The notes under the pieces were generated by a model. That model saw only the letters and a list, made by a program, of their open reading frames with translations, had not been told where the DNA came from and did no database searches. This document shows, one piece after another, positions 22,956 through 44,532 of a DNA stretch of 64,000 bases. This DNA is from an uncultured Chloroflexia bacterium (GTDB lineage: Bacteria; Chloroflexota; Anaerolineae; CG2-30-64-16), in assembly GCA_963810095.1 (NCBI GenBank), contig CAWEMM010000006.1, positions 1,344,001 to 1,408,000 of the forward strand, given 5' to 3'. The position numbers and the translations under genes are program-made. The first letter of the stretch is position 1. Each line of letters opens with the position of its first letter.

Positions 22956-25205
22956 GTGACGGCAAACACTCTGCGCGGGACGATCGAGCGCATCACCTAT
23001 CACAACGAGGAGAACGGCTACTCCGTCGTGCAGCTGTTGCCCGACGGCCAGTCGACGCTCGTCACGATCGTCGGCAACATGCTGGGCATCAACGTGGGCG
23101 AGTCCGTCGCACTGACGGGCGCGTGGGTGGCGCACAGCCAGTACGGCAGGCAGTTCAAGGCGGAATCGGTGCAGACCGTCCTGCCCGCCACCGTTGCCGG
23201 CATCGAGCGCTATCTCGGCAGCGGGATGATCAAGGGCGTCGGACCAGTTACCGCAAAACGCATCGTGCGCAAGTTCGGGGCTGAAACCCTCACCGTCATC
23301 GAGCAGGAGCCGGAACGGCTGCTCGAGGTGCTGGGCGTCGGCCGCAAGCGCGTCGACATGATCGCCAAGGCCTGGGTCGAACAGCAGAAGATCAAGGAAG
23401 TGATGTTGTTCCTGCAGAGCCACAACGTTTCGACCGGGCTGGCCGTCCGCATCTTCAAGCGCTACGGCGACGATGCCGTCGACGTGGTACGCAGCGACCC
23501 CTACCGGCTGGCGCGAGAGGTTTACGGCATTGGCTTCCTCACGGCCGACAAGATCGCACGCGAATTGGGCATCGCAGCCGATGCGCCCGAGCGCGTCGCC
23601 GCCGGCGTTTCCTACGCGCTGAGCCAGGCGGCCGACGAAGGGAACTCCTATCTCCCCGAGAAGGAGCTGACGAAGCGCTCGGCCGAACTGCTCGGCGTCG
23701 CAGAAGCGCAGGCGGCCGAAGGCATACGCACGCTGCTGGCCGACGAGCAGGTGTGGGTTGAAGGCGAGACACCCGCCTGGGCCGGCGAGCATGCGGTCCG
23801 GGCCCCTATCGCAGCACTGGCCGAAGAGCGGCCCGTCTACTTGCTGCCGTTCTACTACGGCGAGGTGGGCGTGACGGGACGGCTGCGGCGGCTGGCTGAG
23901 ACGCCCGAAGACCGGTTGGCGGCCTTTGCCAGCTTCAACTGGTCGGCCGCGTTTGCCCTGCTCGCGGCCGACACATCCAACCACCAAACGCTCACGCCCC
24001 GGCAAATGCAAGTAGTCCAGGCCGCCCTGACCAAACGGGTGGTGGTGCTCACGGGTGGCCCGGGTACGGGCAAGACGTTCAGCGTGCGCAGCATCATCCG
24101 GCTGGCCGAGTCGGCGGGCGCGCGGGTTGCGCTGGCCTCGCCAACCGGTCGCGCCGCCAAACGCCTGGCCGAAACCACGGGCCGGCCGGCCAAGACCATC
24201 CATCGCCTGCTGGAGTTCAAGCCCGGTGAAGGGACCACCTTCCAGCGTAATGAGGACAACCCGCTCGAGGCCGACCTGGTCATCGTCGACGAGGCCTCGA
24301 TGCTCGATCTGCTGCTGACGAACCACCTCTTGAAGGCGCTCGCACCGGGTTCGCACCTGCTGTTCGTCGGCGACATCGATCAACTGCCAAGCGTGGGCGC
24401 CGGCAACGTGCTGCGCGACATCATCGCCGCCATCGAGGACTCCGAAGGTTTGCCCAACGCCGAGGTCATCCGCCTCGACACCATCTTCCGCCAGGCGGAA
24501 GGCAGCTTCATCATCACCAACGCGCACCGGATTAACCAGGGCGAGATGCCCGTGCTTGATAACCAGAACAGCCGGGACTTCTTCATTTTCAAGGAAGAAG
24601 ACCCGGACAGGGCCGCCGGGCTGGTGGTCGAGCTGGTGCAGGAGCGGATCCCGCGCAAGTTTGGCCTGGCGCCCGACCAGATCCAGGTGCTCAGCCCGAT
24701 GCACCGCGGGGCCGTCGGCGTGGGCAACCTAAACCTGCTCCTGCAGGCCGCACTCAACCCGCCGAAAGCGGCCGCGCCCGAACGGCAGGTCGCCGGCCGG
24801 GCGTACCGGTTGGGTGACCGGGTGATGCAGATTCGAAACAACTACGACAAGGAAGTCTTCAACGGCGACATGGGGCAGATCGCCGCAATCGATCTGGAGG
24901 AACAAGTCGTGACGGTCCGCATGGACGAGCGCTCGGTTCGCTACGACTTCCTCGAGCTGGACGAGCTGGTCCATGCGTATGCGGTGAGCGTGCACAAGGC
25001 GCAGGGCAGCGAATTCCCGGCGGTCGTCGTCCCCCTGCTGCCCACACATTACATGATGCTCCAGCGCAACCTGCTATATACGGCCGTGACCCGGGCGCAG
25101 AAACTCGTCGTGCTGGTCGGCACACCGCGCGCCGTCGCCATTGCAGTGCGCAACGACCGTGCCCATCAGCGCTATTCCGGCCTGGCCGAGAGACTTGGGG
25201 GATGA
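22956..25205 (+). CDS. recD2: RecD2 (RecD/TraA family) 5'-3' helicase
   Basis: GTIERITYHNEENGYSV, GIGFLTADKIA, TGGPGTGKT, DEASM, HKAQGSEF and LLYTAVTRA motifs. Confidence 0.95.
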   Translation: MTANTLRGTIERITYHNEENGYSVVQLLPDGQSTLVTIVGNMLGINVGESVALTGAWVAHSQYGRQFKAESVQTVLPATVAGIERYLGSGMIKGVGPVTAKRIVRKFGAETLTVIEQEPERLLEVLGVGRKRVDMIAKAWVEQQKIKEVMLFLQSHNVSTGLAVRIFKRYGDDAVDVVRSDPYRLAREVYGIGFLTADKIARELGIAADAPERVAAGVSYALSQAADEGNSYLPEKELTKRSAELLGVAEAQAAEGIRTLLADEQVWVEGETPAWAGEHAVRAPIAALAEERPVYLLPFYYGEVGVTGRLRRLAETPEDRLAAFASFNWSAAFALLAADTSNHQTLTPRQMQVVQAALTKRVVVLTGGPGTGKTFSVRSIIRLAESAGARVALASPTGRAAKRLAETTGRPAKTIHRLLEFKPGEGTTFQRNEDNPLEADLVIVDEASMLDLLLTNHLLKALAPGSHLLFVGDIDQLPSVGAGNVLRDIIAAIEDSEGLPNAEVIRLDTIFRQAEGSFIITNAHRINQGEMPVLDNQNSRDFFIFKEEDPDRAAGLVVELVQERIPRKFGLAPDQIQVLSPMHRGAVGVGNLNLLLQAALNPPKAAAPERQVAGRAYRLGDRVMQIRNNYDKEVFNGDMGQIAAIDLEEQVVTVRMDERSVRYDFLELDELVHAYAVSVHKAQGSEFPAVVVPLLPTHYMMLQRNLLYTAVTRAQKLVVLVGTPRAVAIAVRNDRAHQRYSGLAERLGG

Positions 25206-27446: not shown

Positions 27447-29393
27447 ATGAGACGTTGGCCCATCTTTGCCGTCGCCGTAGTCCTGTTCTTCACCGTCTTC
27501 CCGGTGGCGGCGCTGGCGCCGAGCGGCGCCATGCCAGGCGAGAAGCTGCCCCCGCGGGCCGCACAGCCCGCGCCTCCCGGCGAAGTCGATCGCACAGGCT
27601 ATATCAAGGGCTTCTACGTCTCGGCCGCGGCCATGGGCAACGCCGACTTCATGGCGCGCGTGAAAGACCTGCTGGAGAACACCGAACTCAACGCGGTCGT
27701 CCTGGACTACAAGAGCGACCGCGGCTATATGGCTTTCCCGACACAGGTCCCACTCGCTGTCGAAATCGGTGCGGACGCCGACCCGCAGGTGAAAGACCCC
27801 GCCGAGTTTATGCGTTGGTTCAAAGAACACAACGTCTACACTATTGCCCGCATCCCCACCTTCAAAGATAACATGCTGACCAAGGCCTACCCGGGCTGGG
27901 CAATCGTCGACACGAACACCGGCGGCGTGTGGCGCGACAAGGAAAAGATGGGCTGGGTGGATGGCAACCGGACAGAGGCGTGGGATTACAATGTTGCCCT
28001 GGCTCAGGAAGCGGCCGCGTACGGTTTCGACGAGATCCAATTTGACTACGTCCGCTTCCCGACGGACGGCAACGTCCACAGCGCCCTTTACTCGAAAGAC
28101 AACACGTACGAGAACCGGGTGGCCGCCATCAGCGGACTCCTGAGCCGCGCCAGCCAGGCACTGCGTCCGCTCGGCGTGAAGGTGAGCGCCGACATTTTCG
28201 GCTACACCTCCTGGGTGCCCGACGACCTGGGAATCGGCCAGCACATCGAGGCGCTTGCGCCCTACGTCGACGTCCTCTCGCCCATGGTTTACCCCTCGAC
28301 CTTCGCCGCGGGCATGCCCGGCGAGAACCCCAAATACCACAACGCCGTCGCCTACCCTTACGAAATCGTCAACAAAAGCACCGAACGCTCGGTGCGGCGG
28401 GCGAAGGAGATCAACCCTCGCATCGAGATCCGCCCTTGGCTCCAGGATTTCCAGGACTACGCGTTCGACTACAGGACGTACACGCCGTACGAAATCCGGC
28501 GCCAGATGGACGGGGCACGTGATGCCGGCGCCCGCGGTTGGCTGCTGTGGGATCCGGCGGTGCGGTACACGAAGGAAGCGTTGGCGGCCGCGCAGCCGGC
28601 CTTCGTGCCCAATGGGGCCGGCCAGGTGCCCGTCCTGGCCTACGGCGACGTTGCTCCCGACGTGCTGCAGGACGACCTCACGTGGCTCTTGGCGCAGGGT
28701 TTCTACCCGACGACGGTCAAAGACCTCGCTGCAGGAAAGCTGGGCGGCGTGCCGGCAGGCAAGAAAGCCGTCGTGCTGACGTTCGACGGCTCGCTGCCCA
28801 ACCAGTTCAAGCTGTTGGAGGGGGGCCAGGTCGATCCGGCGAGCGCGGTGGGCGTGCTGCTCAACTTCGGAGCCCGCCATCCGGCCGACTTCCCCGCCCG
28901 CGCCACCTTCTACGTCGACGCGGTGGGCGGCGAGAACTCCCTCTTCGGCACCTCTGATCTCGCCAGCATCAAGCTGCAGACCTTGCAATCGTGGGGCTTC
29001 GACATTGGCTTGGTGCAGCCTGCCGTCTCTGCCACCGAAGGAACAACTACCGAAGGAGCTACTGCCGAGGCGCTCGGGCAGGCGGCGATGGCCGCATTGG
29101 ACGCGGCGAAACAGCGGCTGGCCGGCCAGCTGCCCGACTTTGTTCCCGCCACCGTGGCGCTTCCGAGCGGCGCATCACTGGCGCCGGTCAGCCAGAGCGA
29201 AGGGGACACCGCCGCTGCGCCCGCCATCCCCTATGCCGGTGCGGTCCTGCCAGCCGGCGGACTCGCCACTTCGCCCTACGACCCCGGGGCGAACCCCTAT
29301 CAGATCCCGCGCCTTCCGGCCGGCGAGGCCGGCGGATCGAGCTGGCGTGACGCCATCGGGGCAGCTGAGATTTACGTTTCCGGGGGCGAATGA
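27447..29393 (+). CDS. secreted putative glycoside hydrolase (DUF4015-like) fused to a degenerate polysaccharide-deacetylase-like domain
   Basis: Signal peptide, TELNAVVLDYKSDRG, GFDEIQFDYVRFP, SPMVYPS and RPWLQDF motifs. C-terminal VPVLAY and VVLTFDG motifs. Confidence 0.82.
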   Translation: MRRWPIFAVAVVLFFTVFPVAALAPSGAMPGEKLPPRAAQPAPPGEVDRTGYIKGFYVSAAAMGNADFMARVKDLLENTELNAVVLDYKSDRGYMAFPTQVPLAVEIGADADPQVKDPAEFMRWFKEHNVYTIARIPTFKDNMLTKAYPGWAIVDTNTGGVWRDKEKMGWVDGNRTEAWDYNVALAQEAAAYGFDEIQFDYVRFPTDGNVHSALYSKDNTYENRVAAISGLLSRASQALRPLGVKVSADIFGYTSWVPDDLGIGQHIEALAPYVDVLSPMVYPSTFAAGMPGENPKYHNAVAYPYEIVNKSTERSVRRAKEINPRIEIRPWLQDFQDYAFDYRTYTPYEIRRQMDGARDAGARGWLLWDPAVRYTKEALAAAQPAFVPNGAGQVPVLAYGDVAPDVLQDDLTWLLAQGFYPTTVKDLAAGKLGGVPAGKKAVVLTFDGSLPNQFKLLEGGQVDPASAVGVLLNFGARHPADFPARATFYVDAVGGENSLFGTSDLASIKLQTLQSWGFDIGLVQPAVSATEGTTTEGATAEALGQAAMAALDAAKQRLAGQLPDFVPATVALPSGASLAPVSQSEGDTAAAPAIPYAGAVLPAGGLATSPYDPGANPYQIPRLPAGEAGGSSWRDAIGAAEIYVSGGE

Positions 29394-29422: not shown

Positions 29423-29456
29423 AATAAAAAGGGAGCGTTGGAATCAACGCTCCCTG
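29423..29456 (-). terminator. intrinsic terminator of the minus-strand ncRNA (possibly bidirectional)
   Basis: AGGGAGCGTTG-ATTC-CAACGCTCCCT followed by TTTTATT on the minus strand. Confidence 0.85.
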
Positions 29457-29467
29457 CCGGTTAAACA

Positions 29468-29651
29468 GAGGTGCCCCAAGCAACCGTCTGGCTTTTGAAT
29501 TCCGGGCTCGCTCTTCACTCGCTTAGTCACTTACCAGATTTTCAAGCTTCTGCACTTTTCAGCACGTCTGCTCAACCGGTTTGTCCGAGCTTCCAGTTTC
29601 CTGGTGTATCTTCGAGCCTGGAACCGCCGTCTGATTTCTCGGGGCTCCCTC
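29468..29651 (-). ncRNA. 6S-like RNA (184-nt core within a transcript of about 280 nt)
   Basis: Flanked by a consensus promoter and a terminator. The 5' and 3' ends pair extensively (GAGG/CCTC, GCCCCGAG/CTTGGGGC, GGTTCC/GGAATT, GGCTCG/CGAGCC), followed by a bubble and an inner ACCAG/CTGGT helix. No convincing ORF. Confidence 0.65.
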
Positions 29652-29707
29652 ACCAGTAGATCAACAACGCCCTTATGATTGTTTGTTGTTTTTCTATTGG
29701 CGCATTG

Positions 29708-29736
29708 AGTGTAGCTGAAATCCACGCTATTGTCAA
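29708..29736 (-). promoter_or_regulatory. sigma70-type promoter TTGACA-17-TACACT
   Basis: -35 at 29731-29736, 17-nt spacer, -10 at 29708-29713, AT-rich upstream sequence. Confidence 0.85.
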
Positions 29737-29739
29737 TAC

Positions 29740-30085
29740 TTTTTATGACAACTTATGAGCCGCACGCGAAATATTAAGCTAAACTTATAAATACCCCGCC
29801 GGCTGTCATCGCCACCGTAAGGGTTGTAACGTATTGAGCTAATGAGTATCTTATTAAAAACAGTAGTAGTAGGGACTGTGGATATGTGGGCAAGACGCGC
29901 TGCAGCAGCGGCGTGCGCGGGATTCCGCGCACCGGTCAGGCGCTCCCACTACATGTGGCCTGCGGCAAATGGCGTCTGGTGTGGGTGGGCCGTGCGCCCG
30001 AGGCCGGGTTTTGTGCCGCAAAGGACATAGGGGGATAACTGGCCTCTGTTTCTCCTGGTTGTCCCCAGTTAAGTGTGGAAAACCG
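29740..30085. other. candidate chromosomal replication origin (oriC)
   Basis: AT-rich tract, then CAGTAGTAGTAG (DnaA-trios, 29861-29872), GGAC, and tandem TGTGGATAT/TGTGGGCAA boxes (29877-29893). Further boxes GGGGGATAA (30030), TTGTCCCCA (30059) and TGTGGAAAA (30074). Confidence 0.75.
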
Positions 30086-30227: not shown

Positions 30228-31043
30228 TTGGCTAGTATTCGCATCATGACCTACAACATTCACCGCTGGGCCGGACGGGACCAGCGGATGGCGCTTGATA
30301 GCCTCGCCGATGTCATCGCCGGCGCCGAGGCCGACGTTATCGGCCTCAACGAGGTGCTTCACCCGGTCACTACGTCGTTGCACACGTATGCCCCGCTCGC
30401 ACAACTCGCCGAGCGACTCGGCATGTGGTACGCCTTTGGGCCCAGTGGGTGGATTGACCAGGGGCCGAGTTGGCATGGCCCGGTGGGAAATGCCTTGCTG
30501 AGCCGCTATCCGCTGGTGGACGTCGCAAACACGCTGCTCCCGCGCCTGCCGGGCACCAAGCAGCGCTCCCTTTTGTGCGCCACGCTCGATGCAGAGCCCG
30601 TGCAGGGCCTCACCGCATTTGTAACGCACCTCGACCATGCCTTCGAAGGCACGCGGCTTGTCCAGATTCGCGGCGTGCTGCGGCGACTGATCCAGCGAGG
30701 ACACAACCACCCGCACTTCCTGATGGGCGACTTCAACACGCCCGGCTTTCTCGGCGCCCGATCGCGCCAGGTCATGCCCCCGGTCCTTCAAGCCATGCAC
30801 GCTGCCGGGTATAGCGATGCATTTCGAACGGTTGGCGAAGGCGCGGGGCGCACCTTCCCGGCCCATTCTCCGATGGTCAGGATCGATTTTCAGTTCGTTC
30901 CGCAGAAGTGGGCGCACGGCTTGCAGCGGGCCGAGGCGATCGGGGGCAGCGCGGCGCACCGCGCGTCCGATCATCGCCCGCTCCTTGTCGAGTGGCTGTG
31001 GCCCGAGCGGACCCGCCTGGGTGAGCTGTCTCCTGCAGGATAA
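30228..31043 (+). CDS. endonuclease/exonuclease/phosphatase (EEP) family protein
   Basis: MTYNIH, ADVIGLNEV, GNALLSRYP, THLDH, MGDFN and ASDHRP motifs. Confidence 0.88.
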   Translation: MASIRIMTYNIHRWAGRDQRMALDSLADVIAGAEADVIGLNEVLHPVTTSLHTYAPLAQLAERLGMWYAFGPSGWIDQGPSWHGPVGNALLSRYPLVDVANTLLPRLPGTKQRSLLCATLDAEPVQGLTAFVTHLDHAFEGTRLVQIRGVLRRLIQRGHNHPHFLMGDFNTPGFLGARSRQVMPPVLQAMHAAGYSDAFRTVGEGAGRTFPAHSPMVRIDFQFVPQKWAHGLQRAEAIGGSAAHRASDHRPLLVEWLWPERTRLGELSPAG

Positions 31044-31082
31044 GCCCGCGCCGCAACCTTCGCCGTCGAGCAAGAGAAGCCA

Positions 31083-31889
31083 GTGAGAGTTCTGACCTAC
31101 AACGTTCATGGCTGGCTCACGCCAGCAGGCGGGCCGAACGTCGACCTGATCGCCGACGTGGTGGGCCGGGCTGACGCCGACCTTGTAGGGCTCAACGAGG
31201 TCTTCTATCCGGACGCCGGCGTCGTGCTGCCGGCGCTCGAACGCCTCGCCGGGGCGCTGGGCATGCATTTCGCGTTTGGCGCTACCCAGCCCACCGATCC
31301 CCAGAAACATCCGCCTTACGGCAATGCCTTGCTGAGCCGTTGGCCCATTGCAGCCTACGCAGCCCATCACCTTGCGCCCGTCGTCAGTTATGGCAAGCGG
31401 GGCCTTTTAGAATGCCGGGTTGTTCGCCCTGACGGTCGAACGCTGACCGTCTACGTCACACATCTCGACCATCGCTCCGAAAAAATCCGCCTCGAGCAGT
31501 GGTCTTCGGCCAACACCTGGTTGCTGCGTGACCGCAACCGGCCGCATCTGCTGCTTGGCGACTTCAACGCCTTGGCCGAGACCGACTATCCCGATCCGGG
31601 CGCCCGCGAACGGCTGGCGGCTTACCAGGTCGAGCGGGAGTGGCCGACGCCGGCATTCGATCTGGTGGCCCAGGTAACCCGGGCGGGCTACCTGGACGGC
31701 TTTGTTGCCGCAGGCCATCCAGCGGGCGCCGGCGCAACCTTCCCCGCCGCCGCGCCTGAGCGCAGGGTCGACTACATCTTTTTGCCAGAGCTATGGCGCG
31801 ACGCGCTGAAGGCCTGTGCCCCGTTCGACCTAGGCCCGGTGCGCGCGGCTTCGGATCACCGTCCCGTGATGGCCGAAATCGATGCCTGA
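31083..31889 (+). CDS. EEP family protein (paralog of the upstream gene)
   Basis: LTYNVH, ADLVGLNEV, GNALLSRWP, THLDH, LGDFN, RVDYIF and ASDHRP motifs. Confidence 0.88.
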   Translation: MRVLTYNVHGWLTPAGGPNVDLIADVVGRADADLVGLNEVFYPDAGVVLPALERLAGALGMHFAFGATQPTDPQKHPPYGNALLSRWPIAAYAAHHLAPVVSYGKRGLLECRVVRPDGRTLTVYVTHLDHRSEKIRLEQWSSANTWLLRDRNRPHLLLGDFNALAETDYPDPGARERLAAYQVEREWPTPAFDLVAQVTRAGYLDGFVAAGHPAGAGATFPAAAPERRVDYIFLPELWRDALKACAPFDLGPVRAASDHRPVMAEIDA

Positions 31890-32519
31890 GTCTCTGCCGG
31901 AAACGCCCATGCCTGCAGACCAACCGCCGGACTCGGCGCAGCGAGACCCCGATTGGTGGGAGGCTCGCTACCTGAGCGGGGACCTGCCCTGGGACACGGG
32001 CATCACGCCGCCCGAAGTGGTGCAACTGGTTGCCTCAGGGATGGTCAAGGCGGGGTGGGCGCTGGACCTCGGGTGCGGCTCGGGGGTCACGAGCCGGTTT
32101 CTCGCAGCCAACGGATTTCGCACGATCGGCTTGGATCTTTCACTTGCCGCCTTGCGCCGCGGCGCAGCGCGGGCGGCCGCCGAGGGGTTGTCGTGTGCGT
32201 TCCTCCGGGCCAGCGTCGCCGACCTGGCCTTTCTGCAGGTCGACGTCACACTCGCAGTCGACGTCGGGTGTTTTCACAGCCTTTCGGCCCACGCCCGGCA
32301 GACCTACATCCATTCGCTGGCAGATCGTGTCGTGAGAGGCGGCTATTACCTGCTGTACGGTTTTGTCTGCGCGTCCCCGGCCGGGGAGGACGGCGACGGT
32401 CCCTGTCTCGCCTGCCTGCCGACATCGCCGCCTTTGCTCCCTGGTTTATCCTGCGCACGACGGCGCACGGAGGCGACCGGGGCCGTCCTTCGGCATGGTT
32501 CCTCATGCAGCGCGCCTAA
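31882..32519 (+). CDS. class I SAM-dependent methyltransferase, TPMT-like (frameshift near 32410)
   Basis: WEARY..PWDTGITPPEV, LDLGCGSG and DVGCFH motifs. The tail GRPSAWF lies in another frame. Confidence 0.82.
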
Positions 32520-32532
32520 ACTGGTCTGAAAT

Positions 32533-32621
32533 GGGACACTGATTGAACGGATCGGACTGATGATTATGATCTTTGCCAAAGGACAGGGCAGATCAGTTCA
32601 ATCAGTTGCATCAGCGTCCTA
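32533..32621. repeat. REP-like palindrome, family D (GGAC(A/G)C(T/A)GAT...ATC(A/T)GCGTCC)
   Basis: Related element at 63249-63340. Confidence 0.55.
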
Positions 32622-32787
32622 TTTCACATGAGATGAGTCGTCCTGCAAGCCTTGCTGCCTGCCTGCCTCGCATCGCCACACTCCGTCAAATGACTGAGTC
32701 TGCTCGAAGGAACGTTGCCCGGCTTACTTACCCTTTCCAAACCCCTTGCTACAATACTTTAAGTTTCAATTCTCCGGAGGCCATTTT

Positions 32788-33420
32788 ATGCGTTTTGAGA
32801 ATCCGCTTAAGCGGGTGGAGCGGCTGAAGCGGGTGCGCAACCTGCCGGGGCCGACTACCAACGACCGCGTGCCGCCAGGACAGTTTTTGACCGAGAAGTT
32901 CCCTGTCCTGCATTACGGCTCGGTTCCGATCTATAAGAACCTCGACAATTGGGATTTCCGCGTCTTTGGCCTCGTCGAAGAACCGCTGCGTTTGACATGG
33001 GCAGAATTGCTCCGGCTGCCCAAGCAGGTTCAGACGGTGGACATCCATTGCGTCACCCGCTGGAGCAAGCTGGACATGAACTGGGCCGGCGTGCCGTGGC
33101 GCGAGTTTGCCAAGCTCGTGAAGATCAAGCCTGAAGCAACCCATGTCATGGCGCACTGCGAGTATGGGTTTACGGCGAACGTGGACCTGGAAGTACTCGA
33201 CGACGACGATACGATGCTGGCCTACGAGTACGACGGCCAGCCCTTAACCGCCGAACACGGCTATCCGCTCCGGCTTCTGGTGCCAAAGAAGTACTTCTGG
33301 AAGAGCGCAAAGTGGTTGCGCGGCATCGAGTTTATGGCCGGCGACAAGCCCGGCTTCTGGGAGCGCAACGGCTACCACATGGAAGGTGATCCCTGGCGGG
33401 AAGAGCGTTTCGGCTGGTAG
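32788..33420 (+). CDS. sulfite-oxidase-like molybdopterin oxidoreductase (YuiH-like)
   Basis: [36 protein letters not shown] and GFWERNGYH motifs. Confidence 0.9.
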
Positions 33421-33507
33421 CCGGCGCGCGGCCGCCTGCGATTTAGAAGCCAGGTTTCTGCCAGAAACCTGGTTTCTTTTTCAATTCCGTGTAAAATAGA
33501 CGGCGTC

Positions 33508-35073
33508 ATGATCGGCTATCAACTGCGCCAACGCGAATACCTGCTGCAAATCAGCCGGGCGATGACGTCCCGGCTGGATCTCCCGTCCCTGCTGCGCCTG
33601 ATCTTGACCAGCGCGGCCGATCTCGTGCGCGCCGAGGCAGGCGTGATTGCCCTGCGCCGCGGCCGTTCCTCGACCCTGGTCATACACGCGTCGTATGGCG
33701 TGCCGGTGGCGCTGTTGCCCAGGTTTGCACCCTTGCTGACCGATTTCCCGCTCAAGCCCGAGGAATACCGGGTTCCCGACCTGGAGGCTCGGCTGAACAT
33801 GGTGGCCCGGGCCGTCCGCCTGCCGCTGAGCCAAGTCATCGCGCTCCCGCTCATCGTCCACGACGGCCTGTCCGGGGTGATCTACCTGTTCCGCAGCGGC
33901 AGCATTGCGTTCACCGAAAACGATCAGGCCGTGCTCTCCAGCTTCGCCGACCAGGCGGCCATCGCGGTCCGCAACGCGCAACTCTACCAGCAGGTGAGCG
34001 CGGAAAAGCGCCAGCTTGACGCGGTGATCCAGCACAGCGCGGACGGCGTGATGATTCTCGATCCCGACCTGCGCATCCAAGTCTTTAACCAGGCATTGAG
34101 CCGCCTTTTGGGGTGGCCGGCAGACCAGGCCGTCGGCCGGCCCTGCTACCAGGTGCTGGCGCTGGAAGAAGTCGTGGGGGACGACCTGTGCAGCGCAGCC
34201 GGTGGCGAGGCTGTTTTCGCCGGCGGCCAGCCCAGGACGGCCGACGGTGTCGTCGTGCGACCGGGTGGCTCGCGCGTCTCGGTGAGCGTCACCTATTCGC
34301 CGCTGTACGACGAGGACGGGCGGCTGACGAACGTGATTGCGAACGTGGTGGATGTGACCCGCTTTCGTGAGGCGGAGGAAATGAAGGCCTCGTTCGTCTC
34401 GGTCATTTCTCACGAACTGAAGACCCCTGTGGCTCTGATCAAGGGGTATGCGAGCACGCTCGCGCGCGAGGACGCCGAGTGGGACCGGGAGACGCTGCGC
34501 GAGGGACTCCAGGTGATCGGCGAGGAGAGCGACCGCCTAAACGCCCTGATCAACAACCTGTTGGACGCCTCACGCATCCAAGCGGGCGGCTTTACCGTCG
34601 AGCGGGCCGACCTGGACCTGGCCGGGCTGGCCGCGTCCGTCGTCGAGAACTGGCGCATTCAAACCGAGCGCCACCGTTTCATCCTTGATTTCCCCCCGGG
34701 CTTTCCCGACGTAGAGGGTGACGAAGAGCGCCTGCGGCAGGTGCTGAACAACCTGCTGAACAACGCGATCAAGTACTCGCCCGAGGGCGGCGAGGTGCGG
34801 GTGGGGGGCTGGCGCGAGGGCGACCACGTGACGACATACGTCGCGGACCAGGGCATCGGCATTCCAGAGGCCGAGCAGGCCAACCTGTTCCAGCGCTTTT
34901 ATCGCGTCGATTCGAGCCTGCGCCGCTCGACGCAGGGCGCGGGGCTTGGGCTCTTCCTGTGCCGCTCCATTATCGAGGCGCATGGCGGGCGGATTTGGCT
35001 GCGAAGTGAGCCGGGCAAGGGTACGACCGTCTTCTTCACCCTGCCGGTCGCAGGCTCCAACGCGGGACGCTGA
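33508..35073 (+). CDS. cytoplasmic GAF-PAS sensor histidine kinase
   Basis: GAF region (FADQAAIAVRNA), PAS domain, SHELKTP H-box, NAIKYS, DQGIGI and GAGLGL motifs. Confidence 0.92.
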   Translation: MIGYQLRQREYLLQISRAMTSRLDLPSLLRLILTSAADLVRAEAGVIALRRGRSSTLVIHASYGVPVALLPRFAPLLTDFPLKPEEYRVPDLEARLNMVARAVRLPLSQVIALPLIVHDGLSGVIYLFRSGSIAFTENDQAVLSSFADQAAIAVRNAQLYQQVSAEKRQLDAVIQHSADGVMILDPDLRIQVFNQALSRLLGWPADQAVGRPCYQVLALEEVVGDDLCSAAGGEAVFAGGQPRTADGVVVRPGGSRVSVSVTYSPLYDEDGRLTNVIANVVDVTRFREAEEMKASFVSVISHELKTPVALIKGYASTLAREDAEWDRETLREGLQVIGEESDRLNALINNLLDASRIQAGGFTVERADLDLAGLAASVVENWRIQTERHRFILDFPPGFPDVEGDEERLRQVLNNLLNNAIKYSPEGGEVRVGGWREGDHVTTYVADQGIGIPEAEQANLFQRFYRVDSSLRRSTQGAGLGLFLCRSIIEAHGGRIWLRSEPGKGTTVFFTLPVAGSNAGR

Positions 35074-41918: not shown

Positions 41919-44477
41919 TCAGGACTTTAAGCTGGCCCGCAGCAAGGCTTTGGTCAGTTCCTTCGTGTCCAGGGCGTAGTCATGCTCGAGCACCGGCCCC
42001 ACGCAGGCGGGACAGCCGTTGTCGCATGGGCAGTTCGTGACCAAATCGAGCGCCGCGGCCAGCACATCGGGCATCGATTGGAAAAGCTGCTCGGCGTAGC
42101 CGACTCCGCCGGGCGTGCGCTCGTAGATCGTAATGGCGGGGCCGCCCGTGTTCCGGTCTTCTGGCTCGGCCAGCACGCCGAGGTCGCGGCCGTCACACAT
42201 GAGGAAGAGCGGTGCGACGCCCTCGATCAAGGCCGCCGCGCCGCCGAGCCCCGACCGCGTCCGGATGCCGGACTCGGCCCGGTGGTGGCACGACTGGCAC
42301 AGCGTCACCAGGTTATCGTGGCGGTTTGCGACCTTCCAGGCGAGGGCAGCAGGCAGCCCTTCGCGCCGTGCTTCGTCGGCGACGAACGCACGGAAGGGGA
42401 CCTTGTGGTGCACGTCGTGCTGGCGGCCCGCCATCTCTAACGTGCCGCACCCCTGGCAGCGGTAACCGTCGCGCAGGCGCACGGCGTCGCGGGTGGCGGC
42501 CCATTCCGGTCCGTAGTCGTTCGGGTCAGATAGCCACGCGCCGGCGGCTTTGAGCGCCTCGACCGTACGTTCGGGAAAAGCCAGCCAGGCCGCCTGTGTG
42601 TCCAGGATCTGTTCGGGCAGGTCGATCTCCCCGTAGCCGAGCACCTCGTTCGAGCCGCGCTGCAGGATCTTGTAGCTTGTCGCCTGCGAGGTAACCCGCA
42701 CGTCGCCCCAGCCGAGCAAGTAGGGCGCGGCTTCGTCCTCCATTCTCCCGCGCGCTTGCAGCACGTCGATTCTTTCGCCTATGACGGGGCGAGTGTAGAA
42801 GGCGGCCTCGATGCCGCGAACGGCCGCGATCCCCGCTTCCCAGTCGAGCCGTTCGACCACGTACGACGCGCCTTCGTGGAGATAGATCGCGCCTTCGTAT
42901 AGCAGCAGTGGGACTCCTTCGCGATCCAACTCGCCGATGACGACGGGTTTTCCGTCTTCGCCGCGCGCCTGGATCAGCACCCGGTCGCTGCCTGCGCTCC
43001 GCAGGCTGACCGCTTGCGTCGGGCTGCCCTCGCCGGCCCAGAAGTAGCGCCCGCCTGATAAGTAGAGCTGTCCGGCCTCGACCATATCTGTAAGCAGCCC
43101 GGGCACCGCGGCTGAGCCAAACTTCTCTTCTTGCCCCAGCGGCAGCTCGGCTGCGGTGCAAGCCAGGTGACCGGCGAGGATCACCTCGTTGTCCGGGTTG
43201 ACACGAGCGTGCTCGGGCGACTGCTGGAGCAGCCAGCGCGGGTGGGTAATGACGTACTGGTCGAGCGGCCCGGCGCCGGCGACGAGCACTGCTACGGAAG
43301 CGCCTTGCCGCCGGCCGGCCCGCCCCATCTGCTGGCGGGCGCTGGCGATGGTTCCCGGATGGCCGGCGAGGATGGCTGCATCGAGGTCGCCGATGTCGAT
43401 GCCCAACTCAAGCGCGTTCGTCGCAACCACTCCCCGCACTGTTGCCTCTCGCAGCCCTTTTTCGATCTCCCGCCGGTCTGCCGGCAGGTAGCCACCCCGG
43501 TAGCCACGGACGGTGTGCCGCGCCTGGCGGGGCAATTCGTCGTGCAGGTGGGTCAGCATCAGCTCTGTGGCAAGCCGGGCGCGACCGAAGAGGATCGTCT
43601 GCACGTCGTGGCGGAGGAAGTGGGCCGCAAGCTCGGCGGATTCCTGAACGGTGCTGCGGCGGATGCCCAGGTCCGGGTCGACGACCGGCGGGTTGTAAAA
43701 GAGGATGTGCTTTTCGCCCTGGGGTGCGCCGTCCTGCTCCGGTCCGACAACGGTGACCGGGGCTTCGACCAGCCGCTCGGCCAACTCGCCCGGGTTGGCG
43801 ATCGTGGCAGAGGCGAGGACGAACTGGGGCCGGCTGCCGTAGAACGCGCAGAGACGGCGCAAGCGGCGCAAGACGTTCGCGACGTGCGAGCCGAACACGC
43901 CCCGGTAAACGTGCATTTCGTCCACAACCACGACGCGGAGGGAGGCGAAGAACGCGGCCCAGCGGGGGTGCTGGGGCAGGATGCCCATGTGCAGCATGTC
44001 GGGGTTCGAGAGGATGATGCGCGACGTATCGCGAATCCTGGTTCGCTGCGCCGACGCCGTGTCGCCGTCGTAGGCCGCAGGGAGCAGGGACAATTCTGCC
44101 AGGCGTGCGAGCGCGCTCACTTCGGCTAACTGGTCGTGCGCGAGCGCCTTCGTCGGGAACAGGTACAGGGCCCGAGCCCGAGGCTCGGATAGTAGCCGCT
44201 GGAGCACGGGGAGGTTGTAGCAGAACGTCTTGCCGCTGGCGGCCGGGGTCGCGACGGCAACGTTTTCGCCCCGCAGTGCGGCTTCGACTGCCGCGGCCTG
44301 GTGCTCGTAGAGTGCGTGGATGCCGCGCGACGCCAGTGCCGCCCCAATGCGAGCGTCGAGCCCGGCGGGAGCGGGTTGATAACGGGCGGGCCGGGCGGGC
44401 AGCCGTTCCCAGCGCACCACGTTGCTCATAAAGCGCGGGTCCAGGCGCAGCGCCTGAAGCGCGGATTCTACAGACAT
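41919..44477 (-). CDS. MrfA/YprA/SftH-family DEAH helicase with DUF1998 Zn domain and inserted HNH domain
   Basis: TPAASGKT, DEMH, ATNALELGID, QQMGRAGR and C-terminal CPCDNGCPAC motifs. Insert RDGYRCQGCG..HDVHH..NLVTLCQSCHH. Confidence 0.9.
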   Translation of the reverse strand: MSVESALQALRLDPRFMSNVVRWERLPARPARYQPAPAGLDARIGAALASRGIHALYEHQAAAVEAALRGENVAVATPAASGKTFCYNLPVLQRLLSEPRARALYLFPTKALAHDQLAEVSALARLAELSLLPAAYDGDTASAQRTRIRDTSRIILSNPDMLHMGILPQHPRWAAFFASLRVVVVDEMHVYRGVFGSHVANVLRRLRRLCAFYGSRPQFVLASATIANPGELAERLVEAPVTVVGPEQDGAPQGEKHILFYNPPVVDPDLGIRRSTVQESAELAAHFLRHDVQTILFGRARLATELMLTHLHDELPRQARHTVRGYRGGYLPADRREIEKGLREATVRGVVATNALELGIDIGDLDAAILAGHPGTIASARQQMGRAGRRQGASVAVLVAGAGPLDQYVITHPRWLLQQSPEHARVNPDNEVILAGHLACTAAELPLGQEEKFGSAAVPGLLTDMVEAGQLYLSGGRYFWAGEGSPTQAVSLRSAGSDRVLIQARGEDGKPVVIGELDREGVPLLLYEGAIYLHEGASYVVERLDWEAGIAAVRGIEAAFYTRPVIGERIDVLQARGRMEDEAAPYLLGWGDVRVTSQATSYKILQRGSNEVLGYGEIDLPEQILDTQAAWLAFPERTVEALKAAGAWLSDPNDYGPEWAATRDAVRLRDGYRCQGCGTLEMAGRQHDVHHKVPFRAFVADEARREGLPAALAWKVANRHDNLVTLCQSCHHRAESGIRTRSGLGGAAALIEGVAPLFLMCDGRDLGVLAEPEDRNTGGPAITIYERTPGGVGYAEQLFQSMPDVLAAALDLVTNCPCDNGCPACVGPVLEHDYALDTKELTKALLRASLKS

Positions 44478-44532
44478 GGTTGGATTATAATCCATGCCCC
44501 CCGAACGCGCTGGCCTGGGTGGGCGGGCTGGG

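Follow-up and report, generated by a model that had tools for sequence, protein, structure and literature searches.

Where would replication begin on a chromosome in which an unwinding module of the Bacillus subtilis type (basal unwinding system, BUS) stands in a spacer with no dnaA gene nearby? The window, that is, the whole stretch of 64,000 nucleotides analysed here (C6:1,344,001-1,408,000), belongs to a genome (G000) of 6.13 Mb in 16 contigs that is 88.5% complete. Judging from sequence comparisons, the site is very probably the chromosomal oriC of this Anaerolineae bacterium, and of the BUS type. The parts of the module are as follows.

29820..29860, no strand: candidate unwinding element, AT-rich DNA adjoining the trios, by AT content
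29851-29860: AT tract directly before the trios
29861..29872, plus strand: DnaA-trios CAG TAG TAG TAG of the 3'-GAT-5' type, their periodicity kept in 30 family origins
29873..29876, no strand: 4-bp spacer GGAC, by direct sequence reading
29877..29893, minus strand: two tandem DnaA boxes, TGTGGATAT at 29877-85 and TGTGGGCAA at 29885-93
30030..30082: three distal degenerate DnaA boxes at 30030, 30059 and 30074, that at 30059 in opposite orientation

The string on which the sequence-only reading had based its origin call (AT-rich DNA, CAG TAG TAG TAG, GGAC and two boxes) is present exactly at 29851-29893, and the three further DnaA-box-like 9-mers that it mentioned are those at 30030, 30059 and 30074. 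Its most extended low-GC island is likewise real, as the intergenic spacer with the module has the lowest GC of the window at the scales of 100, 200, 300 and 500 bp. The spacer also holds the 200-bp GC minimum of contig C6 and ranks fourth lowest genome-wide, and the AT content reaches 68-70% over 29820/29836-29872 in a genome of 65% GC. The description of the module as near-textbook holds for the order of the parts and fails in two details, since the tandem boxes share a base and the mid-trio position is often C in relatives. The base common to TGTGGATAT and TGTGGGCAA is 29885, and these boxes carry 1 and 2 mismatches to TTATCCACA; the distal boxes at 30030, 30059 and 30074 have 2, 2 and 1 mismatches to the DnaA-box consensus. 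Altogether, 29740-30085 contains five DnaA boxes with at most 2 mismatches against 0.76 expected (1000 shuffles; P ~0.001), and five boxes occur in 1 of 368 tiles across the 64-kb window.

The rule that we used for a BUS follows PMC8287927 and counts a site when a DnaA box of at most 2 mismatches has three or more NAN trios no further than 16 bp away. Here four NAG trios (seven NAN in register) lie 4 bp from a 1-mismatch box, the tandem boxes stand beside the trios, the gap is short and GC-rich, and the proximal trio is 3'-GAT-5'. A genome-wide scan with this rule returned 789 loose matches, three of which have three TAG trios; two of these three are this site and the third is without a near box. 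The module is thus the best BUS match in the 6.1-Mb genome.

The sole dnaA gene lies 377 kb to the right of the site and dnaN-recF 369 kb to the left, all on the same 1.92-Mb contig C6. The earlier statement that dnaA is absent from the neighbourhood and at least 29 kb away is therefore correct by a wide margin: there is none in the window. The dnaA-dnaN layout of B. subtilis is thus not found around the unwinding region, which is no bar to BUS membership since that layout is not required. On C6 the cumulative G-C skew bottoms out at window position 33,988. Calculated from fourfold-degenerate sites, with a simple custom gene caller, the curve has a flat minimum spanning window 31,082-35,073, the deepest of the genome. 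The replication component of the fourfold-site skew, taken over 80 kb on each side, turns from -0.128 to +0.100 across the site; it runs from +0.074 to +0.100 across dnaA and from -0.097 to -0.017 across dnaN, with no flip at either gene. Two of the checks suggested earlier came out in favour of the origin: the skew of the contig flips 1-5 kb from the site and not at dnaA or dnaN, and the flank of dnaA has DnaA boxes and no trios. Between the chromosomal, secondary or relocated origin that had been left to choose from, the main origin is the most likely, not a secondary one. Strand asymmetry of octamers gave no discrimination among the candidate sites. One sequence agrees exactly with the parS-type consensus; its distance is 113 kb to the origin and 264 kb to dnaA, and parB is 11 kb from dnaA.

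Some features of the surrounding contig can be recorded here. The genes dnaN-recF (C6:1,004 kb) and dnaA (C6:1,751 kb) flank the origin at nearly equal distances (-369 and +377 kb). An origin-centred inversion that broke a dnaA-dnaN junction would leave them in this way, and dnaA is on the lagging strand in G000. A 486-codon frame at C6:611,421-611,888 (L002) gives a weak match to the DnaA-ATPase family (E 2.9e-7) and is without the DnaA C-terminal domain. Two helicase genes are found no more than 12 kb away from the origin, one of the RecD2 type (window 22956-25205, plus strand) and one of the MrfA/Hrq1 type (window 41919-44495, minus strand).

The pattern of trios, spacer and tandem boxes was found in 33 of 37 genomes of the family, in 31 as a single copy, while the reversed control pattern had no match in the same 37. 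Loci were obtained for 30 of the 33 genomes, and dnaA was within 1.5 kb of the motif at none of them (0/30); all 37 genomes have one dnaA, and in the four where it shares a contig with the motif the two are 154, 357, 377 and 672 kb apart. The letters of the tandem boxes are nearly invariant among relatives. The spacer letters differ, its length of 4 being imposed by the search pattern. The middle base of trios 2-4 in the 30 family origins is A in 51, C in 27, T in 11 and G in 1 of 90 cases, and origins of the same genus have a comparable box triplet at +160 to +216. As kin are not independent, the family counts demonstrate conservation and are not separate proofs. At the level of sequence, then, the order of the parts, the single copy, the conservation and the position at the skew switch are established.

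Across the class the exact variant matches 10 of 201 genomes, with false positives among them, and is thus mostly family-specific. The two matches in G183 and the one in G022 (L033, L158, L159) were rejected as origins, being IS-adjacent repeats with no distal boxes, and so was the match in G024, also without distal boxes. The element at the former three loci adjoins IS or toxin-antitoxin-like genes and consists of a mimic of the trio-spacer-tandem-box order followed by an inverted box. A loose pattern applied to five near-complete genomes of the class stayed at chance level (3 matches vs 5 for the control), and only L267 looked like an origin.

The best understood system of this kind is the incC BUS of B. 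subtilis (PMC6669920, PMC8287927, PMC10721633), with which the site shares tandem boxes, a 4-bp GC-rich gap, at least three 3'-GAT-5' trios, AT-rich DNA and a separate distal box group. In B. subtilis the origin needs a proximal and a distal group of boxes joined by a loop (PMC6669920); by sequence both groups are present in the window, the distal subregion of such a bipartite origin being represented by the three degenerate boxes 145-190 bp off. Asn187, Ile190, Ile193, Arg202 and Glu228 of B. subtilis DnaA bind the trios (PMC10721633), and the equivalents of all five are identical in the DnaA of this genome when it is aligned to the protein of PDB 8btg. The mid-trio A can be replaced by C and not by G or T (PMC10721633), a biochemical rule that the natural A-to-C variation in the family matches. 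Unlike incC, the site lies outside a dnaA-dnaN spacer, the two genes being 377 and 369 kb off; its boxes share one base and often have the sequence TGGGGATA; many relatives use C in mid-trio; and an NrdR-type palindrome stands between the proximal and distal boxes. If the B. subtilis mechanism applies, DnaA would bind the tandem boxes, and ATP-DnaA would polymerise leftwards onto the trio strand and open the AT-rich DNA, while DnaA on the distal boxes (30030-30082) would be brought in by a loop and assist the opening.

Remoteness from dnaA is no novelty by itself, since it is already known of origins in some species (10.1101/2022.08.09.503306; PMC13643167), and E. coli oriC and other dnaA-remote origins resemble the site in this respect. 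Our literature search, within the limits set by subscription papers and DoriC entries, found no report of an Anaerolineae origin of this type. The Chloroflexi predictions in Table S1 of PMC8287927 concern the same phylum and follow the same search idea; at least 12 Chloroflexi rows of that table, including Anaerolinea and Caldilinea, use a non-standard box motif and none of these 12 resembles this module. The site offers a well-supported origin for a Chloroflexota lineage in which the published BUS predictions look unlike it.

Between the two groups of boxes lie two inverted repeats.

29915..29930, no strand: GC-rich inverted repeat at the would-be partner-box position, 31 bp before the NrdR-type box
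29946..29961, no strand: NrdR-type 16-bp palindrome CCACTACATGTGGCCT, 76 bp from the proximal trio, by matrix score

The search for NrdR sites was seeded with the consensus of PMC4009431 only, and the best pairs upstream of nrdR were taken; these are spaced by 31 bp in 27 of 30 genomes and by 30 or 32 bp in the other three. From the nrdR-promoter pairs of 29 relatives alone we built a matrix, by which 29946-29961 scores 11.5 bits (local shuffle p ~0.003) and ranks 108th of 510 genome sites of at least 9 bits. In a set of 27 family origins freed of duplicates, 17 have a site of at least 9 bits within +30..+99, compared with 0.86% of equally long intergenic windows, and one of at least 8 bits lies within +28..+299 in 26 of the 30 family origins, the controls giving 2/30 and 1/30. 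The offset is +45-49 or +75-79 in 20 of 30 origins, and these two favoured offsets differ by ~31 bp, the spacing of an NrdR pair. With known NrdR operators (PMC4009431, PMC12176259) the site thus has in common the 16-bp palindrome, as in the boxes of the nrdR promoters of this lineage, and the phase of the origin offsets at ~31 bp. It differs from them in that origin boxes are mostly single and overlap no nrd gene or promoter. The palindrome expected from the consensus (PMC4009431) is present in the window; the second box 31 bp away is not, as the 31-bp partner scores -10.7 bits and the GC-rich repeat at 29915-29930 scores -12.5 bits. A palindrome like that at 29915..29930 is found also in G001, G004 and G007.

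It is plausible, if just short of probable, that NrdR acts at this palindrome. In its dATP-loaded form NrdR attaches to DNA and bends it into a sharp kink (PMC12176259). Bound in this form, it would shape or gate the loop between proximal and distal boxes, a step to which we give nearly even credence. An almost balanced case can be made for an oriC whose palindrome is bound by another architectural protein with a similar motif or is a relic of low occupancy. The box in the window is single, full 31-bp pairs were found in one of 30 origins (G013, with two full pairs), and the matrix rank is modest; in addition, in 10.1101/2025.03.28.645925, regulation was seen only with pairs of NrdR boxes, and the single boxes at dnaA (Shewanella) and topA gave none. 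Against this, a matrix that comes from 31-bp pairs at nrdR promoters still finds the origin site, the favoured offsets keep the ~31-bp phase, nrdR is present in 31 of 31 genomes, and offsets fixed across ~16 genera are not what a relic would be expected to show.

In E. coli, IHF works at oriC between the proximal and distal boxes, in a fixed-geometry box cluster, and on the arms of integrase attachment sites. An NrdR-type box is present at all three kinds of IHF-type site here, namely oriC, a DnaA-box cluster of fixed geometry and both arms of putative integrase attachment sites. The likeness to E. coli oriC is a bending-protein site between the proximal and distal DnaA sites (PMC6669920), and the difference is that the intervening site is NrdR-like and not IHF. 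A search for HU/IHF (PF00216) gave matches in 2 of 37 family genomes, each weak or partial, and in 22 of 151 genomes of the class; lack of a match does not amount to absence. As HU/IHF is rarely found and NrdR kinks DNA with dATP, we propose that NrdR might stand in for IHF; and as both binding and kinking by NrdR depend on dATP loading, initiation would then be licensed by the precursor pool. The full scheme, in which NrdR took over the architectural jobs of IHF, the dATP pool licenses initiation and the divergent 6S/Ms1-like RNA described below may help opening, is speculative and rather unlikely as a whole. NrdR may just as well have a repressing role at the origin as a licensing one; in B. 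subtilis, the loss of nrdR has its effect mainly on elongation (PMC9825946). If NrdR does act at the origin, this would give a direct and testable mechanism matching initiation to dNTP supply, and would make NrdR a DNA architect beyond repression. Our literature search, limited by subscription papers, bioRxiv supplements, RegPrecise and DoriC, found no report of NrdR boxes in oriC, and passages of PMC4989314, PMC3840689, 10.64898/2026.10.21.760802 and 10.1101/2025.08.05.668638 held nothing further on these questions.

The genome has seven strong tandem NrdR pairs, one being the nrdR-nrdJ promoter and six adjoining tRNA genes or fragments. Pairs of the NrdR type (30-32 bp) stand at both ends of two integrase-bearing islands, and the tRNA-adjoining pairs lie at C6:453.6-469.9 kb, C7:104.6-115.9 kb, C12:745.7 kb and C14:315.3 kb (L129-L132). 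As a fourth IHF-type site we looked for CRISPR leaders and found no array in this genome. Downstream of nrdR, at C14:110.2-111.8 kb, the ribonucleotide reductase appears as two PF02867 pieces in different frames, which may be a split gene, a frameshift or an insertion.

It is improbable that another initiation site exists elsewhere, whether as the second of two origins or in lineages where the present one is silent or bypassed. The genome is a draft with the completeness and contig number given above, the pattern is missing in 4 of 37 family genomes, of which three are 97-99% complete, and the skew of relatives is not uniform. Besides G000, seven long-contig relatives were sampled for their skew near the motif, and in these eight genomes it flips in five, is flat in two and is contrary in one. 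Flips are seen in G002 (-0.043/+0.064), G217 (-0.021/+0.074), G221 (-0.100/+0.017) and G230 (-0.033/+0.056), in addition to G000; G008 (+0.001/+0.010) and G012 (+0.046/+0.055) are flat. In G001, the closest relative, the values are +0.173/-0.021, the skew peaking 150 kb away and falling to zero at the site. Set against this, no other switch in the genome comes close in depth to that on C6 (-5854 vs shallow minima or slopes at contig ends), there is no second match of BUS quality, and each of the 37 genomes has one dnaA.

The G001 anomaly is a smooth positive hump of GC skew over C24:160-435 kb that reaches ~+0.5 at fourfold sites near 310 kb. It includes genes of both strands, and its sign is opposite to that of the homologous DNA in G000 and G002. 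An inversion was rejected as its cause: the 341-425 kb segment is inverted relative to G000, but its sign equals that of the flanks.

A very improbable reading makes the site a DnaA-box cluster like datA or DARS and places the real origin in the boxes 3' of dnaA. The dnaA gene does have such boxes. Directly 3' of it stand three co-oriented DnaA boxes at 0, +22 and +42, followed by a palindrome 51-52 bp after the third box, which is rank 2 by the nrdR-promoter matrix, and by a fourth box ~95 bp after the third; with 4 boxes of at most 1 mismatch this is the best box cluster of the genome. These boxes are better than the weak distal ones at the site, parB is nearby, and the geometry is fixed: the boxes are found in 12 of 13 family genomes and the palindrome at that offset in 9 (G025, of another family, was left out of the count). 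However, neither trios nor an AT tract were found next to these boxes, the skew does not change at dnaA in G000, G002 or G230, and G015 is without the cluster yet has a BUS. An origin at dnaA was rejected on the grounds of the missing trios and skew change.

The cluster may instead tell of the history of the origin. In G207, a genome of another family, the module is intact 3' of dnaA, in the order three boxes, NrdR-type box, box, NrdR-type box, tandem boxes and trios, and the layout beside dnaA in the present family matches the distal half of that origin. We infer that the origin once stood immediately 3' of dnaA and then underwent a split or a partial duplication: dnaA would have kept the three distal boxes and the NrdR-type box without trios, while the unwinding half would now be hundreds of kb away. 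Our guess, by analogy, is that the cluster may now serve as a titration, autoregulatory or DARS-like site. The comparison systems are datA and DARS2 of E. coli and the DnaA-box clusters of B. subtilis, which are alike in having boxes in fixed geometry and a site for a bending-type protein but no trios. The cluster here differs from all of these in following dnaA directly on its 3' side and in its layout, which resembles the distal half of a G207-type origin.

The left edge of the 29740..30085 region abuts the promoter of an RNA gene, and protein genes follow on both sides. Neither this RNA gene nor the NrdR-type box had been noticed in the sequence-only reading.

27447..29393, plus strand: left neighbour, DUF4015 putative glycosyl hydrolase (Pfam PF13200, E 3.5e-102)
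29430..29455, minus strand: intrinsic terminator hairpin of the RNA gene, an 11-pair stem, then a T run
29456..29701, minus strand: uncatalogued structured non-coding RNA, ~275 nt with terminator, by conservation, fold and covariation
29708..29736, minus strand: sigma-70-type promoter (TTGACA-17-TACACT) that faces away from the trios; distance to the proximal trio, 133 bp
30246..31889, plus strand: two genes of the endonuclease/exonuclease/phosphatase family (EEP; Pfam PF03372)

It is scarcely credible that the AT island is the promoter region of this RNA only and that the likeness to a BUS arose by chance: the island does hold a strong promoter with a conserved upstream AT tract, but the RNA occurs without a BUS in G009, G012, G013 and G017 and the BUS also without the RNA, so that the two are separable and this reading is largely refuted, and the letters of the tandem boxes are nearly invariant. 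The A/T tract at window 29740-29780, 20-30 bp upstream of the RNA promoter, is kept in RNA copies without an origin and thus belongs to the promoter.

Beside the oriC, 29456-29700 is the most conserved part of the spacer, above the BUS itself, and the RNA was found in 18 of 18 family relatives. From the predicted +1 at 29701 it would form a 5' hairpin arm and then a long rod (29651-29467) with a central multiloop. The fold has z = -2.7, and 8 of 25 consensus pairs show a compensatory change, including G-C to A-U swaps in the closing helix. Among copies the 5' arm measures 32-144 nt and the rod ~165-205 nt, relatives' RNA genes also have terminator-like hairpins, and the promoter layout is kept in 34 of 35 distinct copies, the 35th being the C7 paralogue with a variant. 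A model of the RNA recognised it in 3 of 3 further family genomes and, weakly, 2 of 117 others, and all 28 named records with the RNA motif are Anaerolineae, Anaerolineales, Chloroflexia or Chloroflexota MAGs. Rfam gave no match to the RNA at the locus, and the loci of 11 relatives gave solely an irrelevant miRNA match. Canonical 6S (RF00013) was rejected, as its model has no match here and the 6S of the genome is at C11:25113-25310 (85 bits), and so was Ms1 (RF02566), with no match at the locus and a best E of 2.6 elsewhere. Ms1 is a rod with a central open region and extra 5' and 3' hairpins, of 230-370 nt and near ori (PMC9130861). In the predicted folds the present RNA likewise has a rod with a central open region and 5' and 3' hairpins, and it shares with Ms1 the size range and the position near the origin (PMC9130861). 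With both Ms1 and 6S it has in common an independent sigma-70-type gene and the long rod with its central open region, and it differs in matching neither model and in being transcribed away from the origin. According to the models, then, the RNA is a conserved family missing from Rfam, 6S/Ms1-like in shape; our literature search, limited by subscription papers and bioRxiv supplements, found no report of an RNA of this kind.

Contigs from RNA libraries cover 29456-29694; in three libraries they are 100% identical over 179-214 nt, with no contigs on the flanking genes, and in a fourth variants occur at summed depths in the thousands vs ~3 on neighbouring DNA. These libraries were chosen for containing the sequence, and the contigs show neither strand nor level. 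The family, missing as it is from Rfam, is visible in metatranscriptomes.

The RNA gene flanks 24 of the 30 origins and is absent beside 6 (in one from lack of flank), so it is not required for the origin. In E. coli, the gidA promoter fires away from the AT side of oriC, parallel to the RNA promoter here. By this analogy, the RNA gene, being transcribed in the direction leading off from the trios, could add negative supercoils that aid opening, a suggestion that we make tentatively and with some doubt. A second copy of the RNA at C7:574,544-574,925 (L104) has its own promoter and terminator and is not near the origin.

The DUF4015 gene converges on the RNA terminator, and a homologue lies within 1.5 kb of the origin in 17 of 30 family origins. 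An EEP homologue does so in 27 of 30, which makes it the most constant right-hand neighbour and an EEP gene a usable origin indicator gene for this family. Together, the motif and the EEP neighbour form a signature for finding origins and for anchoring replication-rate estimates in these MAGs. In G012 (C6:252.1-252.3 kb, L091), the RNA beside the origin keeps the 5' arm and the closing stem and has lost the apical domain, and a full copy is present on another contig.
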